The notes below the pieces were generated by a model. That model had not been told where the DNA came from and ran no database searches. It was given only the letters and a program-made list of their open reading frames with translations. From Eubacteriales bacterium (lineage in GTDB: Bacteria > Bacillota > Clostridia > Oscillospirales > CAG-272): DNA of 64,000 nt. Positions 51,814 through 58,400 of this stretch are shown here, piece after piece. Location of the stretch: the NCBI GenBank assembly GCA_045542075.1, contig JAZQKI010000001.1, positions 488 through 64,487 on the forward strand. The letters are read 5' to 3'. Position 1 is the first letter of the stretch. Every line of letters begins with the position of its first letter. Made by a program: the position numbers and the translations under genes.

Positions 51814-53529
51814 ATGGAAAAGTATTTGGAAAACTACAACCGTTGGTTAAACTCCCCCGTTCTTTCCCAGGCAGAAAAGCAGGAGCTTTTGTCAATCAAG
51901 GATGACGAAAACGAGATAAAGTTCCGCTTTTCATCTTATCTGTCCTTTGGTACTGCGGGACTCCGCGGCACAATGAAGGTCGGCATGAACGCGATGAATA
52001 TCTACACCGTCGCTCACGCAACGCAGGGCCTCGCTTCCCTCATTTTGAAGGAAGGCAGAGCGGCAGACGGCGTGGCTATCGCGTACGACTCCAGAAACAA
52101 CTCCGAGCTTTTTGCCCACGTATCCGCAGAGGTGCTTGCGGCGTCAGGAATTCCCGTTTACATTTTTGACGCGCTTCGCCCCACACCCGAGCTTTCATTT
52201 GCTCTTCGTGAGCTGAAATGCGTTGCGGGTATTAACATAACGGCATCTCACAACCCCAAGCAGTATAACGGCTATAAGGCTTATTGGGAGGACGGTGCAC
52301 AGCTTCCCCCCGAGCACGCGGACACAGTAAGTGCTGAGATTGCAAAGGTTGACATTTTTGACGGCGTTAAGAGAATGGACTTTGACGAGGGCGTAAAGTC
52401 GGGTATTATCACTATAATCGGTGACGAGATCGACGAAAAGTATCTTACTCAGGTTCAGGCGCAGGCGGTAAATCCCAATGCGGTAAAGAACGTATCTGAC
52501 GACCTCAAGATAGTTTACACTCCCCTTCACGGCACGGGACACAAGCTCGTTCCCGAGATCCTCAAGAGAACGGGACTCAAGCATCTCTACACGGTTGATG
52601 AGCAGTGCGTAATAGACGGCAATTTCCCCACAGTTGAGAAGCCCAACCCCGAGTATGCGGAGGTATTTTCTCTCGGTATTGAGCTTGCAAACAAGGTGGG
52701 AAGCGACCTTATAATTGCTACCGACCCCGACGCTGACCGAGTTGGCGTTGTTGCAAGAACAAAGGACGGCTCGTTCAGAACCATCACGGGCAACCAGATG
52801 GGCGCGCTCCTCCTTGACTATATAATCACGGCTTACGAGCAGACAAACACCATGCCCCCTCTTCCCTATGCCGTAAAGACTATCGTGACGACCGAGCTTG
52901 CCTCAAAAATCTGTCAGTCGCACGGAGTTGAGATATTCAACGTGCTTACGGGCTTTAAGTTTATCGGCGAGGTAATCAAGAACCACGAAAAGAGCGGTCA
53001 GGGCTCGTACATTTTCGGCTTTGAGGAGAGCTACGGCTACCTCAAGGGTACTTACGCAAGAGACAAGGACGCTGTCGTGGCTTCAATGCTTATCTGCGAG
53101 ATGACGGCTTACTATGCGGCAAAGAATATGACTCTCTCCGACGCGCTTGAGCTTCTTTACGAGAGATACGGCTACTGCTGCGAGTCCAACTCCGAGATTT
53201 ATATGGAAGGCGTTGACGGTCCCGCAAAGATTGCGGCTATTATGGACGGTCTCCGCAACAACGCTCCCTCCTCTATCGGTGGCGCTGACGTTGTCACCTT
53301 CGGCGACTATAACGCCGAGGAGTTTACGGATATTGCAACGGGCAAGAAGACTCCCACGGGACTTCCCAAGTCAAACGTGCTTTATTTCAAGCTGGACAAC
53401 GGCGACGTTATCATCGTTCGTCCCTCGGGTACAGAGCCCAAGATAAAGTTCTATTTCCTCGTTATTGCTGAAAATGCAGATAACGCGCAGGAAAAGATTT
53501 CAAGCTATAAGGTTTCCCTTGGAATTTAA
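51814..53529 (+). CDS. phosphoglucomutase/phosphomannomutase family protein
   Basis: 571 aa. FGTAGLRG, the active-site motif ITASHNPKQYNGYK, ATDPDADR and GFEESYGY are present. Confidence 0.92.
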   Translation: MEKYLENYNRWLNSPVLSQAEKQELLSIKDDENEIKFRFSSYLSFGTAGLRGTMKVGMNAMNIYTVAHATQGLASLILKEGRAADGVAIAYDSRNNSELFAHVSAEVLAASGIPVYIFDALRPTPELSFALRELKCVAGINITASHNPKQYNGYKAYWEDGAQLPPEHADTVSAEIAKVDIFDGVKRMDFDEGVKSGIITIIGDEIDEKYLTQVQAQAVNPNAVKNVSDDLKIVYTPLHGTGHKLVPEILKRTGLKHLYTVDEQCVIDGNFPTVEKPNPEYAEVFSLGIELANKVGSDLIIATDPDADRVGVVARTKDGSFRTITGNQMGALLLDYIITAYEQTNTMPPLPYAVKTIVTTELASKICQSHGVEIFNVLTGFKFIGEVIKNHEKSGQGSYIFGFEESYGYLKGTYARDKDAVVASMLICEMTAYYAAKNMTLSDALELLYERYGYCCESNSEIYMEGVDGPAKIAAIMDGLRNNAPSSIGGADVVTFGDYNAEEFTDIATGKKTPTGLPKSNVLYFKLDNGDVIIVRPSGTEPKIKFYFLVIAENADNAQEKISSYKVSLGI

Positions 53530-53545
53530 GAGAATAATAAAATAA

Positions 53546-53590
53546 ACCGCCGAGAGCGACTAAAGCAGTTGCTCTCGGCGGTATTTCTTA
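53546..53590. terminator. bidirectional terminator
   Basis: 12-bp stem accgccgagagc / gctctcggcggt followed by ATTTCTT. Confidence 0.75.
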
Positions 53591-54559
53591 TTATGAATTT
53601 GGAAGTATAATTGTTGTCAGTGCCTTTCTCTGCTCTTCGGTAGGCAGACCCAGCTTGCCGTTATTCAAAAGCGCAACAATACAGTGAAGCAAGAACCAAC
53701 TGTCAGAGTGGAACACAAACTGCAGCTCATACTCTTTGATCTTTCTCAAATGCGCCGGAACACACTCCAAAGCAGCCTTGGCATACGGTGCTTTGAGTGC
53801 TTCAAATTGATCCTTATATTTCGCCTTAATGCGCTCACCGATCATAAGCAACTCGTTTTGCACTTCCTTATTGGTCAGAACAATGATTTTCCATGCTGTC
53901 TTGAAGCATCCGTCGTAGTCACCCCAGGTCTTAATGTAGCCACGCTCACCAAGCCATGCATAATCCTCCTTGGAGAGCAGCCATTCTTTTTCATGGTCGT
54001 AGAGCGAAAGCACGCGCTTGGCATCATCCGCGTACACGAAATATCCTTTATAATCGCCTCGATTAGACCATTCGCTATCGATCTGCCACAAGATATGACC
54101 GTCATGCTCGTTCCACATAGGTCCGCACCAATTCTTCATGTATACGTGGCCCTCGGGCAACACTATATCATCCGGCACGACCGTCGCATGAAAGATATTT
54201 TGCCCACCGTCGGGACGAATGGTTGCCACCTCGTCAAACGTAATACGCTTATCCATCAAATCATCACCCGACAAAGCGGCAATATACGGAACGAGCGACC
54301 ATAAAAGGAAATTATGATCTCTTTGCGGCTTTTCGAGTGTCGTTTCGGGCATCATATAGTTGCAAAAAATGCGCTCGTCATCTAAGATTCCGCTACTTTT
54401 CAGCTGATCAAACAGATCGTTTGCAAACAGCTCCGCAGCCTTTTTATACATATTGTTCTGCATGACCAATAGCTCTGCCGTAGGTTCGTTGATGATAAAA
54501 TTGATCAGATACTTGTCCTTTTGCTTTATCAAAAAGCCGTATTCCTCTAAAATATCCAC
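53591..54559 (-). CDS. uncharacterised 322-codon ORF, in frame with and 2 codons downstream of the stop of the sigma ORF (possible C-terminal half of a split gene)
   Basis: It is open from GTG 54559 with no RBS. The first ATG is 32 codons in. The N-terminus VDILEEYGFLIKQKDKYLINF looks like the end of a winged helix whose first helices lie in the upstream ORF. Confidence 0.5.
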   Translation of the reverse strand: MDILEEYGFLIKQKDKYLINFIINEPTAELLVMQNNMYKKAAELFANDLFDQLKSSGILDDERIFCNYMMPETTLEKPQRDHNFLLWSLVPYIAALSGDDLMDKRITFDEVATIRPDGGQNIFHATVVPDDIVLPEGHVYMKNWCGPMWNEHDGHILWQIDSEWSNRGDYKGYFVYADDAKRVLSLYDHEKEWLLSKEDYAWLGERGYIKTWGDYDGCFKTAWKIIVLTNKEVQNELLMIGERIKAKYKDQFEALKAPYAKAALECVPAHLRKIKEYELQFVFHSDSWFLLHCIVALLNNGKLGLPTEEQRKALTTIILPNS

Positions 54560-54565
54560 CTCTGT

Positions 54566-55258
54566 TTACACATAAACGGGTGATACACCCAGATCATCTG
54601 CGATCTCATTGACCGTCTTGGCGATGTTTCTGACGCAGTAGCATATATTCTGCGGCAGGCTTGACCGAAAAAATTCGTCCGGATTTCTGTTCCCCGCCGA
54701 GCCATTGATTCCGTATGCATGAAATTTTATCGGATTAAATTTGAGTTCACTTGTTTTTCTCATAGTATCCATACCTCGTTTCAATTCTTTTTTTGCTTCA
54801 AACAAGTGCCATTTAACTGTGCCGATAGGAATACCCAAATCTTTAGCAATATCTCCTTGCTTGCGATTTTCAAAATAGTACGCAATTACGATCTTTCGCT
54901 GGAGCTTTGAAAGATATGCAATTTCGCTCTGCAATCTACGTATGGTATCGGCATTGTCGTCGTCATTAAAAATAGAGTCGGGATCGGCAATTATCTCCGC
55001 CACCTCATCAATGGATACGCCTATCACGCTTTTAGCGGCATCTCTATAATAATTACTGAGCGCATTATGAGCAATCGTCCAAATAAATTTGTTAACGTCC
55101 CCGATATCGTCTTTGATCAAAAGCGCACGAAATGCTTTTAATACGATATCCTGCGAAAGATCCTCCGCGTCGTGTGCATTCTTACACCGCTTCAGCGCAA
55201 AGCCAAATATGGGATTAAGATATTTAGTGATGATTTTTTCGGCATCTTGTCTGTTCAC
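54566..55258 (-). CDS. ECF-type sigma-70 family RNA polymerase sigma factor with C-terminal extension
   Basis: 230 aa. Region 2 is AEDLSQDIVLKAFRAL...WTIAHNALSNYYR. Region 4 is LQRKIVIAYYFENRKQGDIAKDLGIPIGTVKWHLFEAKKELK. An extra 70 aa or so end in TVNEIADDLGVSPVYV, followed by TAA at 54566-54568. Confidence 0.82.
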   Translation of the reverse strand: MNRQDAEKIITKYLNPIFGFALKRCKNAHDAEDLSQDIVLKAFRALLIKDDIGDVNKFIWTIAHNALSNYYRDAAKSVIGVSIDEVAEIIADPDSIFNDDDNADTIRRLQSEIAYLSKLQRKIVIAYYFENRKQGDIAKDLGIPIGTVKWHLFEAKKELKRGMDTMRKTSELKFNPIKFHAYGINGSAGNRNPDEFFRSSLPQNICYCVRNIAKTVNEIADDLGVSPVYV

Positions 55259-55368
55259 TTGTTTGTACCTCGTTGAAAGCTTTCACCTATATAGACACGG
55301 ATTTTGAAAAAGGTTGGATTTTTTTAATAATTATATCATAAATTGAAAAAATGTCGACTTTTATGACT

Positions 55369-55400
55369 AAGGCACTTGCAGTAATTTTCACAAGTGCCTT
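55369..55400 (-). terminator. hairpin downstream of dnaE
   Basis: Stem aaggcacttg / caagtgcctt. The T-run is better on the plus strand, so its function on the minus strand is uncertain. Confidence 0.4.
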
Positions 55401-55409
55401 AGTTTTTGT

Positions 55410-58400
55410 TTATTTCAAAATACAATTCTCCTCTCCAAGCAGCTTTTTAAGCTCGGAGATGGCATATTCCGAGCAAAACATTTTTTCGCTGTACTCGGAG
55501 TATTTTTTTGTACTGCTGTCATAGAAAATGACTGAAAGGCTGCCCTCGTTGAATATATCTACAAGATTCTTTGCGTATTTGAATTTTTCGCACTCCATAT
55601 CGGGAACACGCAGATATATTTTTGTCGGGACTGTAGCCTGTTTTTGAGGCGCGGGCGCGGTCTTTTGTGTAGTCGGTGCTGGCTCTGCCGGCTTTGCCGG
55701 CGCGGCACTCATATAAGCCGAAAGATATACCGAAAGCCTTGGGTCTGCGGCGGGCTGCGCGGGGTTACTTGTCGGTTTATTTTCAACCGCTTTAAGCTGC
55801 TCCTGCTTTTCAAATACGGAGTTTTCCATCAAGGGAGATACTGTATTTACAAGTATCTTTGCGTCCTCGTCCTTATATGACAGAGTTCCCTCTATATACA
55901 CACCGTTGTCAAGCAATATTTCGTGCGAATAGTTGTTATATACCTTCGGGAAGGTAATGCACTCTATTTCGCCGAGCTTGTCCTCAAGCTTGAAAAACGC
56001 CATTCGCTCTTCTCTTCTCGTGGTCTTGAAGGTCACCGCGGTAACAATTCCCGCGAGCTTTACCTTAGCACCGTCACGGAGAGTGCTGTCGTCGGATATA
56101 ATATCCGTTATCTTTGTCACGGACAGAGACTTGACGTGGGACTCAAAGTTGTCTATCATATGTCCCGAGAAATACATCCCCGACGCGTCCTTTTCAAGCA
56201 TAAGCTTTTCGCGCATAGTAAACTCGGGAATATTGGGATACTCAAACGATGGCGTATCCGCGCCGCCCGCCATTGAGAACATATCCATCTGCCCCATAAT
56301 GTTGTTGCGCCTTTTCTGCTGTATATTGTCGATTATGCTCTCGTAGGATGCGAGAATTTGCGAGCGATGCGCGCCAAGACCGTCAAAGCCTCCCGCCTTG
56401 ATTATAGCCTCTACCTGACGCTTGTTAAGCTCGGTGGTCTCGGACATTCTCTCAACAAAGTTTTCAAAAGACGTAAACGGCTCGCGCGTTCTCTCGCGTA
56501 TAATTGCCGCGATAAACTGTCTGCCGACGTTTTTGAGCGCCGCCATACCGAAGCGGATATTGCCCTCAGTATCCGTGCCGAAATCAACTCGGCTTGTGTT
56601 TATATTGGGCGGCAGGACTGATATGCCGAATTTTGAGCATTCAGCAATATATTCCGCGGCTTTGGTACGGTTGTCAAGCACGCTTGTGAGAAGCGCCGCC
56701 ATATATTCACCCGTGTAGTGCGCCTTCAGATACGCCGTGCGGTAGGATATGAGCGCGTAGGCTGCTGCGTGGGACTTGTTAAAGGCATAGTTTGCAAAGC
56801 TTGACATATCCTCAAAAAGCTTTTCTGCCTTTTTGCCGTCAATTCCGTTGGCTTTAGCTCCCTCAATAAACTGCTCGCGCTCGGCATTCAATACCGACGC
56901 TTTTTTCTTTGACATCGCGCGGCGCACTATATCCGCGTGACCGAATGTATATCCCGCGATATTTCGGAAAATGCTCATTACCTGCTCCTGATATACGGTA
57001 CAGCCGTATGTGGACTTCAATATAGGCTCAAGCTCGGGAATGTCGTATTTGATTTTTGACGGGTCGTGCTTGCACTCGATAAATCTCGGTATGGAGTCCA
57101 TAGGTCCCGGACGGTAGAGGGCTATCGCTGCGATAATATCGTCTATACACTCGGGACGGAGATTCTGGAGCATCTGTCTCATTCCGTCGGACTCAAGCTG
57201 GAACACGCCAAGGGTATTTCCCTTTGAGATAAGCTCGTACGTCTCTTTATCGTCAAGGGGTATCTTTTCAATGTCAAAGTCGGGGTTATTCTCTTTTATC
57301 TGCTTTTCCGCGTCGCTGATGATTGTAAGATAACGCAGAGCCAAAAAGTCGAATTTGAGTAGTCCGAGTGCGGCTATGGTGTCCATATCAAACTGCGTGA
57401 CGGTCGCGCTGTTGCTGACTGCAAGCGGCACGTAGTCTGATACGGGCTCGTCGGTAATGACTACGCCCGCGGCGTGAACCGAGATGTTTCGGGGCATTCC
57501 CTCAAGAGCCATAGCGGTGTCTATAAGCTCGCGCACCTGCTCGGAGTCCTTATACATTTCCGCAAGCGCGGGGGATTTTATCGCCTGCTTCAAGGTTATT
57601 CCAAGCTCGTGAGGTACGGCTTTTGCCACTGCGTCAACGTCTGAATAAGACATACCCATAGCGCGACCGCAGTCGCGTATTGCCGCCTTTGCGGCAAGAG
57701 TTCCAAAGGTGATTATCTGCGAGACGTGATCCTTGCCGTATTTTTCCTCAACGTATCTTATGACCTCGTCGCGTCGCTCATAGCAGAAGTCAATATCAAT
57801 ATCGGGCATGCTTACTCGCTCGGGGTTGAGAAATCTCTCGAACAGCAGGTCGAATTTTATAGAGTCGACCTCGGTAATTCCAAGCAGATAAGCCACAAGG
57901 CTTCCCGCGCCCGATCCTCTGCCGGGTCCGACGGATATGCCTGATTTTTTTGCGAAGTTTACGTAGTCCTGAACTATGAGGAAATAGTCAGCGTATCCCA
58001 TAGACGAGATGACCGAAAGCTCGTACTTTATTCTTTCCTCGTAGGCAAGTCTGTTATTGTGAGGTTTATCTCCAAATACTATGTGTCCTCGTTCTATACG
58101 GCTCTCAAGTCCGCGCTGTGTAAGCTCACAGAGATATTCCTCCGCGCTCTTGCCCATAGGACACGGGAATTTCGGGAGAAGCACCTGCTCAAAGTCAAAC
58201 TCAAGATTGCACTTATCTGCTATTTTGACTGTGTTTTCTATTGCCGAGGGATATTCTGCGTAGATCTCGCGCATCTCCTCGGTGGTCTTGATGTAGTAGT
58301 CGTCCGAGTCAAATTCGGGCTTGTGAGGGTCTGTGAGTGTGGTGTTGGTCTGTATGCACATCAATACCTGCTGAACGTATGAGTCGCGACGGCGTAGGTA

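Follow-up and report, generated by a model that had tools for sequence, protein, structure and literature searches.

Fused C-terminal extensions constitute the second commonest mode of regulation among ECF sigma factors and usually occur without an anti-sigma gene (PMC7826278). The groups that carry such regulatory extensions include ECF41, ECF42, ECF56, ECF238, and ECF264, among others (PMC3426412; PMC7826278), and in ECF41 partial truncation of the extension raised activity 20- to 120-fold, whereas its full removal left none (PMC3426412). The gene described here lies in a 64-kb stretch of DNA, referred to below as the window. It resembled the extended ECF groups in having sigma2 and sigma4 regions, no sigma3 region, and a long extension after sigma4, and in standing alone, with no adjacent anti-sigma gene. 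Its reading frame was interrupted at codon 231 by a single TAA, which we read, with a probability of roughly 0.6, as a recent G-to-T nonsense mutation that breaks a single sigma-fusion gene of 555 codons. The parts of this reading frame were as follows:

54569 to 55258, minus strand: truncated product, codons 1 to 230, with sigma2 (55231 to 55034), sigma4 (54940 to 54782), a linker, and helices 1 and 2 of the predicted winged helix
54566 to 54568, minus strand: premature TAA at codon 231, where relatives have GAA or GAG (Glu); one coding-strand base, at 54568, changed from G to T
53594 to 54565, minus strand: codons 232 to 555, in which the winged helix is completed and is followed by a long helix and by a C-terminal domain with alpha/beta and helical parts
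54488 to 54682, minus strand: winged helix, residues 193 to 257, placed by an AF2 model and by weak Pfam and PDB matches
53588 to 53593, minus strand: natural gene end, tandem TAA TAA, read from the sequence

The initial annotation had described a sigma ORF that ended at the TAA and a frame that continued beyond it, and the sequence bore out both. The ECF-type ORF (55258 to 54569, minus strand) comprised 230 codons from a GTG start, and its product ended in ...DDLGVSPVYV immediately before the stop. In the unchanged frame, the stop was followed by the codons ACA GAG GTG (T-E-V), and the frame remained open for 324 codons, initially given as 322, up to the tandem TAA TAA. The downstream ORF was likewise as first described, with a GTG at 54559 to 54557, its first ATG 32 codons after that GTG, and no ribosome-binding site: no GGAGG-type site was found upstream of the GTG, and the local GAGGTG includes the GTG itself. 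The bases around this GTG were ordinary coding sequence (E-T-E-V) in all relatives. Of 46 long ORFs in the window, 28 ended in TAA, more than in any other stop codon, and the tandem TAA at the gene's own end indicated that this codon terminates translation in the organism.

The read-through translation had end-to-end matches to approximately 2,000 database proteins, far more than chance could produce. The best 120 of these homologs were all single proteins of 515 to 571 amino acids (aa) that covered 93 to 100% of the read-through query, and a distant-profile search listed 120 further matches of 538 to 588 aa. All of the relatives examined read through codon 231, both the 240 listed proteins and 80 species-representative genomes, the latter being the loci in which the motif was found. 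Codon 231 was GAA in 68 of these 80 loci, GAG in 12, and a stop in none, and Glu231 was invariant in a 133-sequence alignment with identities of 49 to 86%. GAA was also present at codon 231 in the sister strain L001, which was 98.75% identical over a gap-free alignment of 20.4 kb, and in a third, conspecific copy, L086 (protein P0391); in both of these strains, approximately 99% identical to the window copy, the 555-aa ORF was intact. Compared with both conspecific copies and with all outgroups, the stop was therefore a point substitution, TAA for GAA. The initial annotation had proposed a single gene for a sigma-fusion protein of about 550 aa, had listed a nonsense mutation among the possible lesions, and had suggested an alignment of orthologs as a check; the single long ORFs of the relatives, their Glu codon at position 231, and the GAA codon of the nearest strains support all of this. 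No ortholog was found to have two genes and a ribosome-binding site at the position of the stop, the arrangement named there as contrary evidence. Because one base change separates the window copy from a gene that is single in all relatives, the stop points to a broken copy or a base-calling error and not to a regulated switch.

Two of the other 80 species-representative genomes, each with a MAG label, also had isolated in-frame stops in the sigma-fusion gene. A cluster look-up gave a single record of an identical 230-aa product, from a 72,113-bp NCBI contig, and on that contig only, public gene calling listed the sequence from GTG 54559 onward as a 322-aa protein of its own. Exact-product look-ups in a contig index returned no match, and two exact-pattern scans across the junction in JGI metagenome contigs found neither the TAA nor the GAA allele.

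The N-terminal part of the protein was an ECF-type sigma core, residues 1 to 165. Sigma70_r2 (residues 10 to 75, 4.7e-11) and Sigma70_r4_2 (residues 107 to 159, 6.1e-13) both passed the Pfam cut-offs, and the NCBIfam sigma70-ECF model TIGR02937 scored 82.6 bits against a cut-off of 42.9. No sigma3 family was listed in Pfam scans of the window copy and 18 distant members, and the presence of sigma2 and sigma4 without sigma3 or sigma1.1 identifies the core as an ECF (group 4) sigma-70 factor. The top PDB matches, by sequence and by fold, were the ECF sigma factors SigL, SigH, SigW, and AlgU. In all full-length relatives, approximately 390 aa followed sigma4, far above the length of about 50 aa beyond which a C-terminal part is counted as an extension.

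An AlphaFold (AF2) model built from the 133 sequences (mean pLDDT, 82.6), which replaced an earlier run on a shallow alignment (mean pLDDT, 61), placed a winged helix directly across the stop. The predicted elements were helices at residues 200 to 208, 216 to 223, and 227 to 239 and strands at 243 to 246 and 249 to 252, that is, a three-helix bundle followed by a beta-hairpin wing, with a pLDDT of 77 to 96 in this block. Residue 231 fell within the third helix of the model, between the sigma core and the C-terminal domain. Weak matches overlapped the same stretch; these were the below-cut-off Pfam families HTH_11, MarR, HTH_5 (ArsR), HTH_Crp_2, and PafC-HTH and, in the PDB, 2x4h (E = 0.017), the SelB winged helices, IdeR, and Sso10a. 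The model and these matches favor the original suggestion that the stop sits inside a winged helix. A cut inside helix 3 rather than at a domain boundary would leave neither half with a complete fold.

Beyond the winged helix, codons 232 to 555 include a domain of approximately 300 aa without a known family. No Pfam family exceeded the threshold in this region in the window copy or in 18 distant members, NCBIfam gave only the generic ECF model, and searches of the PDB by sequence and by fold (two models) gave no match for the C-terminal part among the matches listed. Matches to this part occurred in just 207 representative clusters of 1.84 billion, and the full-length members of these clusters carried it at approximately residues 232 to 555 of proteins of 526 to 571 aa; some representative clusters of 360 to 400 aa started at a conserved Met163/166, directly after sigma4. 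One further match, to a 4,419-aa DUF11-repeat surface protein, consisted of 17 weak repeats against residues 75 to 173 of the C-terminal query and was set aside as summed weak repeat matches and not homology. In the window copy, codons 232 to 555 are probably untranslated or merely inefficiently re-initiated.

The signals for expression of the gene were all in place. The elements flanking the reading frame were as follows:

55330 to 55357, minus strand: sigma-70-type promoter-like site, TCGACA, 16 nt, TG-n-TATAAT
55292 to 55317, minus strand: ECF-type promoter-like motif CCAACC-N13-GTGTCTA, conserved; putative auto-regulated promoter
55274 to 55285, no strand assigned: perfect palindrome of 12 bp, TGAAAGCTTTCA, downstream of the promoter motif and upstream of the ribosome-binding site
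55268 to 55271, minus strand: Shine-Dalgarno sequence GAGG, 9 nt before the GTG start at 55258 to 55256; kept in the upstream alignment
53546 to 53582, no strand assigned: G+C-rich hairpin between the convergent sigma-fusion and phosphoglucomutase genes; terminator-like on both strands

The sigma-70-type site agreed with the consensus at 11 of 12 positions and had an extended -10 element, and a stretch with TATAAT recurred 5' of many orthologs. The motif CCAACC-N13-GTGTCTA had a single match in the 64-kb window, with a chance expectation of 0, and at 74 of 86 loci it preceded the start codon by 35 to 60 nt; of 81 upstream regions, 79 contained CCAACC and 70 contained GTGTCTAT. The palindrome TGAAAGCTTTCA also had a single exact match in the window, and its core, GAAAGCTTTC, recurred in 75 of 81 species, with a constant spacing to the start codon. 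Its sequence is operator-like, and it may be a binding site. An RNA hairpin at the palindrome was not supported, since the predicted fold was not stable (minimum free energy, -2.5 kcal/mol; z-score, +1.09). The terminator-like hairpin had 16 pairs on the plus strand and a shorter site on the minus strand. The intact state of the promoter-like motifs, Shine-Dalgarno sequence, and terminator suggests that the lesion is recent.

In the window, the gene was flanked by dnaE and by the convergent phosphoglucomutase gene. Conserved synteny with these two genes was rejected, as the arrangement was absent in 80 other species; in one relative, a phosphoglucomutase gene again adjoined the sigma fusion. 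No anti-sigma Pfam family was found in the neighborhood, either in the window or in the few other contexts inspected, and the neighbors varied.

Comparison with the sister strain placed the gene within a stretch of unusually low divergence:

53470 to 55463, no strand assigned: low-divergence island relative to the sister strain, with just 8 window-private substitutions

The flanks of this island contained approximately 20 differences per 500 bp. Within it, all eight differences from L001 and L086, at positions 55157, 54568, 54354, 54336, 54273, 53897, 53736, and 53648, were private to the window copy, and the stretch was otherwise identical; private changes in the sister copies numbered 0 in L001 and 3 in L086. 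All eight replaced G/C by A/T, most of them as G to T when read on the non-template strand, and six were G:C-to-T:A, a proportion much higher than that found elsewhere (6/8 versus 19/247, p = 1.2e-5). A genome-wide mutator or library-damage signature was rejected, as the 19 G:C-to-T:A changes outside the gene were balanced by 17 in the reverse direction. Eight codons differed in the window copy, five of them non-synonymously (the stop included) and three synonymously, compared with 49 non-synonymous and 190 synonymous differences in the other 16 genes (Fisher p = 0.014), an excess that fits either relaxed constraint or random error. Set against ordinary nonsense pseudogenes, this one-sided, G-to-T-rich private cluster was the sole unusual feature of the locus.

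The private cluster bears on whether the mutation is real, as we believe it probably is, or whether the T at 54568 is a consensus artefact in a gene that is in fact intact, with GAA at codon 231, an alternative that we consider possible but on balance doubtful. Changes from G:C to T:A are a signature of oxidative damage (8-oxoG) and may arise in vitro, and their dominance among the private sites, within a stretch where two independent assemblies otherwise agree with the window, speaks for an artefact, as do the record of the TAA allele on a single NCBI contig and the two MAG-labelled genomes with isolated stops, which fit a background of assembly errors. If position 54568 was miscalled, the other seven private calls may be artefacts too, for example through low local coverage combined with 8-oxoG damage to the library. 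Synonymous private changes also appeared more numerous than in the sister copies, so that relaxed selection alone would not account for the cluster. The lack of a G:C-to-T:A excess outside the gene, however, argues against a library-wide artefact, which would not stay within 1.7 kb; moreover, the eight sites cover 1.5 kb, beyond one short read pair, and the complete absence of indels from the 20.4-kb alignment indicates that the assembly is otherwise clean. A more elaborate account, which we regard as improbable, also takes the stop as real but sees in it a sign that the sigma fusion is repeatedly inactivated or deregulated: loss of the winged helix and C-terminal domain would free the sigma core, which would then over-drive its own promoter and thereby expose the coding strand to transcription-associated oxidative damage. 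It draws on the 2-kb island, whose identity among strains would suit a recent sweep or exchange, on the eight later G/C-to-A/T changes in the window copy alone, on the independent nonsense codons in the same gene of two other species, and on the combination of a sigma core and its own winged helix with a strictly conserved palindrome downstream of a conserved promoter. If this account were true, the family would be a self-contained regulator of new design, sigma factor and operator-binding protein in one, and the window allele would be a natural separation-of-function allele.

Two further explanations give the stop a function. A functional split, which we hold to be very unlikely, would yield a 230-aa free sigma factor and a separate C-terminal protein, re-initiated at GTG 54559 or at an in-frame TTG nine codons further on, and the two might act in trans as a sigma factor and its regulator do. 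Both halves have entries of their own in public gene calls, the restart codon lies 7 nt after the stop, and the 360- to 400-aa clusters from Met163/166, if they are not fragments, may mean that sigma-less forms exist; these clusters begin elsewhere, however, and may be truncated calls on short contigs. The predicted position of the cut, which falls within the third helix of the winged helix instead of between domains, the GTG that lacks a ribosome-binding site and is plain coding sequence in all relatives, and the absence of a split at codon 231 from all 80 orthologs also argue against a split. Programmed read-through or recoding, as a regulated switch that makes the sigma factor with or without its C-terminal domain, is the least credible reading of all and draws on geometry alone, an in-frame stop that separates the sigma core from a putative regulatory module. 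The initial annotation had raised such a switch, and this suggestion fails: because no relative conserves the stop, not one of the 80 genomes and not even the two strains of approximately 99% identity, and Glu231 is invariant in its place, read-through and recoding were rejected. UAA is, furthermore, the stop codon that ends both this gene and most long ORFs of the window, and to our knowledge bacterial recoding systems use UGA or UAG with dedicated elements. An alternative genetic code was rejected on the same TAA usage and because the window contains no tRNA gene, suppressor or other. Around the stop, the window copy has the conserved coding sequence of its relatives, and the sole nearby hairpin, immediately 5' of the stop and within conserved codons, was a terminator-like match at chance level.

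The intact gene encodes a sigma core (residues 1 to 165), a predicted winged helix (approximately 193 to 257), and the C-terminal domain of approximately 300 aa. Under the preferred reading, that of a recent nonsense mutation, one G-to-T transversion would have converted the invariant Glu231 codon so that translation ends in helix 3 of the winged helix. The product would retain the whole sigma core but have neither a functional winged helix nor the C-terminal domain, and the remaining 324 codons would be dead sequence, at best weakly re-initiated. By analogy with other C-terminally extended ECF sigma factors, the fused module is most likely a cis-acting control on the sigma core, as would be expected of a stand-alone gene with its own promoter and terminator and no adjacent anti-sigma gene. 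The sigma factor probably drives its own conserved CCAACC-N13-GTGTCTA promoter, and the winged helix may bind at the palindrome directly 3' of that promoter. The truncated allele would then be either inactive or deregulated.

The stop itself is of minor importance, representing one broken or mis-called gene copy, and its direct consequence is that two publicly annotated "genes" should be read as one disrupted ORF. Of greater interest is the uncharacterized fusion family, with its conserved upstream promoter motif and palindrome; the closest of its roughly 2,000 database relatives that were found came nearly all from uncultured Clostridia metagenome assemblies, largely from the animal gut. A regulatory role of the C-terminal module, an auto-regulated promoter, and an operator are each suggested by these arrangements, and should the family be studied, the TAA allele would be a natural truncation exactly between the sigma core and the presumed regulatory module.

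Apart from the private cluster, the locus differed in no essential way from the ordinary nonsense pseudogenes or "split genes" of bacterial genome and MAG assemblies, with which it shares a single-base stop in a conserved ORF, intact expression signals, and the calling of two genes by annotation pipelines. In sigK of Bacillus subtilis, the large skin element is inserted and is excised by a recombinase; the window gene is similar in that a sigma-factor reading frame is interrupted but differs in that the interruption is one substituted base, with no insertion and no machinery for its reversal. Selenocysteine is recoded at UGA and pyrrolysine at UAG, and recoding sites are conserved among orthologs and use specific RNA elements. 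The window resembles these systems in having an in-frame stop within a conserved ORF, but its codon is UAA, occurs on one contig only, and replaces an invariant Glu. With the extended ECF groups, the likeness in architecture is accompanied by a difference in the extension itself, which comprises approximately 390 aa, with a predicted winged helix and a domain without a Pfam family or a listed PDB fold, and is not SnoaL-like, TPR, Cys-rich, or DUF1835; Pfam scans of the window protein and 18 distant members contained no SnoaL family, a SnoaL-like or NTF2-like C-terminal domain being the trait of ECF41 and ECF56. Since truncations of the ECF41 extension strongly alter activity, the nonsense codon in the window would, by analogy, be expected to do likewise.

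Features of the sigma-fusion gene in the window:
55258 to 54568..54566, minus strand: sigma ORF, from GTG start to TAA, 230 codons, C-terminal end ...KTVNEIADDLGVSPVYV
55357..55330, minus strand: sigma-70-type promoter-like site, TCGACA-16-TGnTATAAT
55317..55292, minus strand: CCAACC-N13-GTGTCTA, single occurrence in the window, against a chance expectation of zero
55285..55274: perfect 12-bp palindrome TGAAAGCTTTCA, just downstream of CCAACC-N13-GTGTCTA, sole exact copy in the window

The codons directly after the TAA are, in the same frame, ACA GAG GTG (T-E-V, with the GTG at 54559), and the frame remains open for 324 codons up to a tandem TAA TAA at 53593..53588. Rereading of the sequence confirmed the coordinates, the junction peptide, the GTG, and the 32 codons to the first ATG recorded in the initial annotation. 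Residues 1 to 165 constitute an ECF-type sigma factor, with Pfam Sigma70_r2 and Sigma70_r4_2 and an NCBIfam TIGR02937 score of 82.6 bits (cut-off 42.9). The 230-aa and 322-aa products were recorded once, on a single NCBI contig (72,113 bp) annotated with two genes. Just 5' of the premature stop (54577-54591, minus strand), GGGTG-TAT-CACCC and the TTTATGTG after it make up a small hairpin resembling a terminator; it falls within the strongly conserved codons for L-G-V-S-P-V-Y-V, and the resemblance is probably fortuitous.

A search with the read-through translation, carrying X at the stop, matched 2,156 proteins, the best 120 of which were all single proteins of 515 to 571 aa with query coverage of 93 to 100%; with a profile of distant members, 1,930 proteins matched, and the best 120 were all 538 to 588 aa. 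The proposed fusion of about 550 aa was thus borne out by best-matching relatives that are single proteins of 515 to 588 aa. The closest match, P0001 (99% identity, 555 aa), is encoded on a 102-kb ENA contig of the same species (locus L001), whose gap-free alignment with the window extends over 20.4 kb (98.75% identity). Codon 231 is GAA in L001 and TAA in the window, which differ there by one coding-strand substitution, G to T at 54568, and the third conspecific copy (L086, protein P0391) is likewise intact, with Glu231 present. In 80 species-representative genomes, nearly all of them uncultured Clostridia from metagenome assemblies and largely from animal gut, the alignment of orthologs suggested in the initial annotation as a check for a sense codon and a single long ORF found a Glu codon (GAA in 68, GAG in 12) after G-V-S-P-V-Y-V/I and an uninterrupted frame there in 80 of 80. 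Furthermore, Glu231 did not vary in either of two alignments, one of 27 sequences and one of 133 with identities of 49 to 86%. Because the relatives read as one ORF with an invariant Glu231, the gene is normally a single ORF, and the window copy is, as judged from these alignments, one with a nonsense substitution of that residue.

In-frame stops elsewhere in the gene were present in 2 of the 80 other species, both species-representative genomes labelled MAG:
L014, 2054-3706: TAG in the gene at aa 408, a Gln position in relatives
L038, 4001-5638: TAG in the gene at aa 152, a Leu position in relatives

Since these stops are at other sites, disrupted copies, whether real or assembly noise, appear to recur at differing positions and are not site-specific.

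AlphaFold gave a low-confidence model from a shallow alignment (mean pLDDT 61); with 133 sequences, the mean pLDDT was 82.6 and the pTM 0.66. This model contained sigma2 (helices 3-75), a disordered linker, sigma4 (103-165), a second linker, and a canonical winged helix (H200-208, H216-223, H227-239, and strands 243-246 and 249-252; block pLDDT 77-96). Its third helix has residue 231 in fifth position, in agreement with the earlier reading of a stop inside a helix-turn-helix plus wing. The same stretch had sub-cut-off Pfam matches to HTH_11, MarR, ArsR (HTH_5), Crp-type, and PafC HTH, and weak PDB winged-helix matches to 2x4h, SelB, IdeR, and Sso10a. Beyond it, the model continues through a long helix (261-289) and an alpha/beta region to a helical bundle ending at residue 555. 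This C-terminal part had no Pfam family in the window copy or in 18 distant members and no PDB fold match among the matches listed, and, of 1.84 billion representative clusters, it matched only 207; among these, the full-length ones were all 526 to 571 aa and carried the domain at about residues 232-555. In addition, six representative clusters of 360 to 400 aa (P0123, P0126, P0127, P0143, P0158, and P0174) start at a conserved Met163/166, just past sigma4 (M-D-T-M-R...LKFNPIKF), and hold the winged helix and C-terminal domain only; they may represent either natural proteins that lack the sigma core or gene calls cut short on small contigs.

The regulated read-through or truncation switch entertained in the initial annotation was rejected: no relative has a stop at codon 231, TAA is the commonest terminator in the window (28 of 46 long ORFs) and also forms the gene's own end, and the 64-kb window contains no tRNA gene. 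The bases 3' of the stop (ACAGAGGTG) are plain coding sequence in all relatives, and therefore the GTG and its GAGG-like string were rejected as an evolved restart signal. The remaining options are a real recent mutation, to which we assign a probability of about 0.6, and a consensus error with an artefactual T at 54568, which is appreciably less probable; either would be ordinary, the former as a gene interrupted by a nonsense codon and the latter as a miscalled base.

The indirect evidence on these two options is mixed, and JGI metagenome scans found neither allele. Within a 2-kb island (53470-55463), the window is identical to L001 except for eight substitutions, all within the sigma-fusion ORF, versus about 20 differences per 500 bp in the flanks (3' ends of dnaE and the phosphoglucomutase gene), which are mostly transitions and, within codons, mostly synonymous. 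Neither L001 nor L086 shares any of the eight, and these two copies have none and three private changes of their own in the gene, respectively; outgroup species marked the window state as derived at codons 231, 308, 329, and 454. In the window, all eight replace G/C by A/T, and G:C to T:A makes up six of them, compared with 19 of 247 differences elsewhere (Fisher p=1.2e-5), where the reverse change, with 17 cases, balances them. Five are non-synonymous (E231*, T302M, R308L, W329L, and R508K), against 49 non-synonymous to 190 synonymous in the other 16 genes (p=0.014). Such an excess would follow if the gene had died by a recent nonsense hit and then drifted, but drift of a dead gene leaves the one-sided excess of all changes and the G-to-T bias unaccounted for. 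Oxidative-damage artefacts in the consensus account for the substitution spectrum, yet give no reason why it should be limited to 1.7 kb when the rest of the assembly is clean. The island pattern suggests that this gene recently underwent exchange or a sweep and then a burst of change, or of error, in one direction.

Although flanking genes differ, the approximately 75 nt 5' of the start codon were almost invariant in 81 species, with the consensus TCCAACC-TTTT-N9-CGTGTCTATAT-GG-GTGAAAGCTTTCAAC-GAGG-N9-GTG. CCAACC-N13-GTGTCTA occurred at the equivalent place in 74 of 86 loci and looks like an ECF-type promoter, possibly auto-regulated; it is followed by the palindrome TGAAAGCTTTCA, whose core was found in 75 of 81 species, and then by the SD and GTG start. 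The palindrome gave no stable RNA hairpin (MFE -2.5 kcal/mol, z-score +1.09), which disfavours an RNA element and makes a protein-binding DNA site the better reading; as a putative operator, it is an obvious candidate target of the protein's own winged helix. A second motif copy, spaced CCAACC-N14/15-GTGTCTA, preceded an ECF-sigma-like ORF in three loci from related genomes (L051, L005, and L035), and was followed each time by another palindrome, AAGCGCTT. The L051 ORF (2077-5315), close to the 555-aa gene, is a second, much longer ECF-sigma fusion of 1,054 aa with the N-terminus MYYKNETDQTLVMLTLAG; ORFs at comparable positions in L005 (3980-4120) and L035 (602-740), only partly read, have a similar N-terminus.

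The sigma-fusion gene is a stand-alone unit whose neighbours vary between species; it shares a terminator hairpin with the convergent phosphoglucomutase gene, and no anti-sigma family adjoined it in the neighbourhoods inspected. This arrangement, a stand-alone gene without an adjacent anti-sigma gene, matches the one reported for ECF sigma factors that are regulated through fused C-terminal extensions (PMC7826278). When the ECF41 extension was shortened in part, activity rose 20- to 120-fold, and when it was deleted entirely, activity was lost (PMC3426412). The 230-aa product would, on this analogy, lack activity or be deregulated. The defining ECF domains were tested for and are present, and the window protein is a broken copy within this known family, although the fusion architecture and the conserved promoter and palindrome merit separate study. 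In its working, the protein is closest to ECF groups with fused regulatory extensions, but its extension, which combines a winged helix with a domain of about 300 aa that has no match, is of none of the types named in PMC7826278 and PMC3426412 (SnoaL-like, TPR, Cys-rich, DUF1835, and transmembrane).
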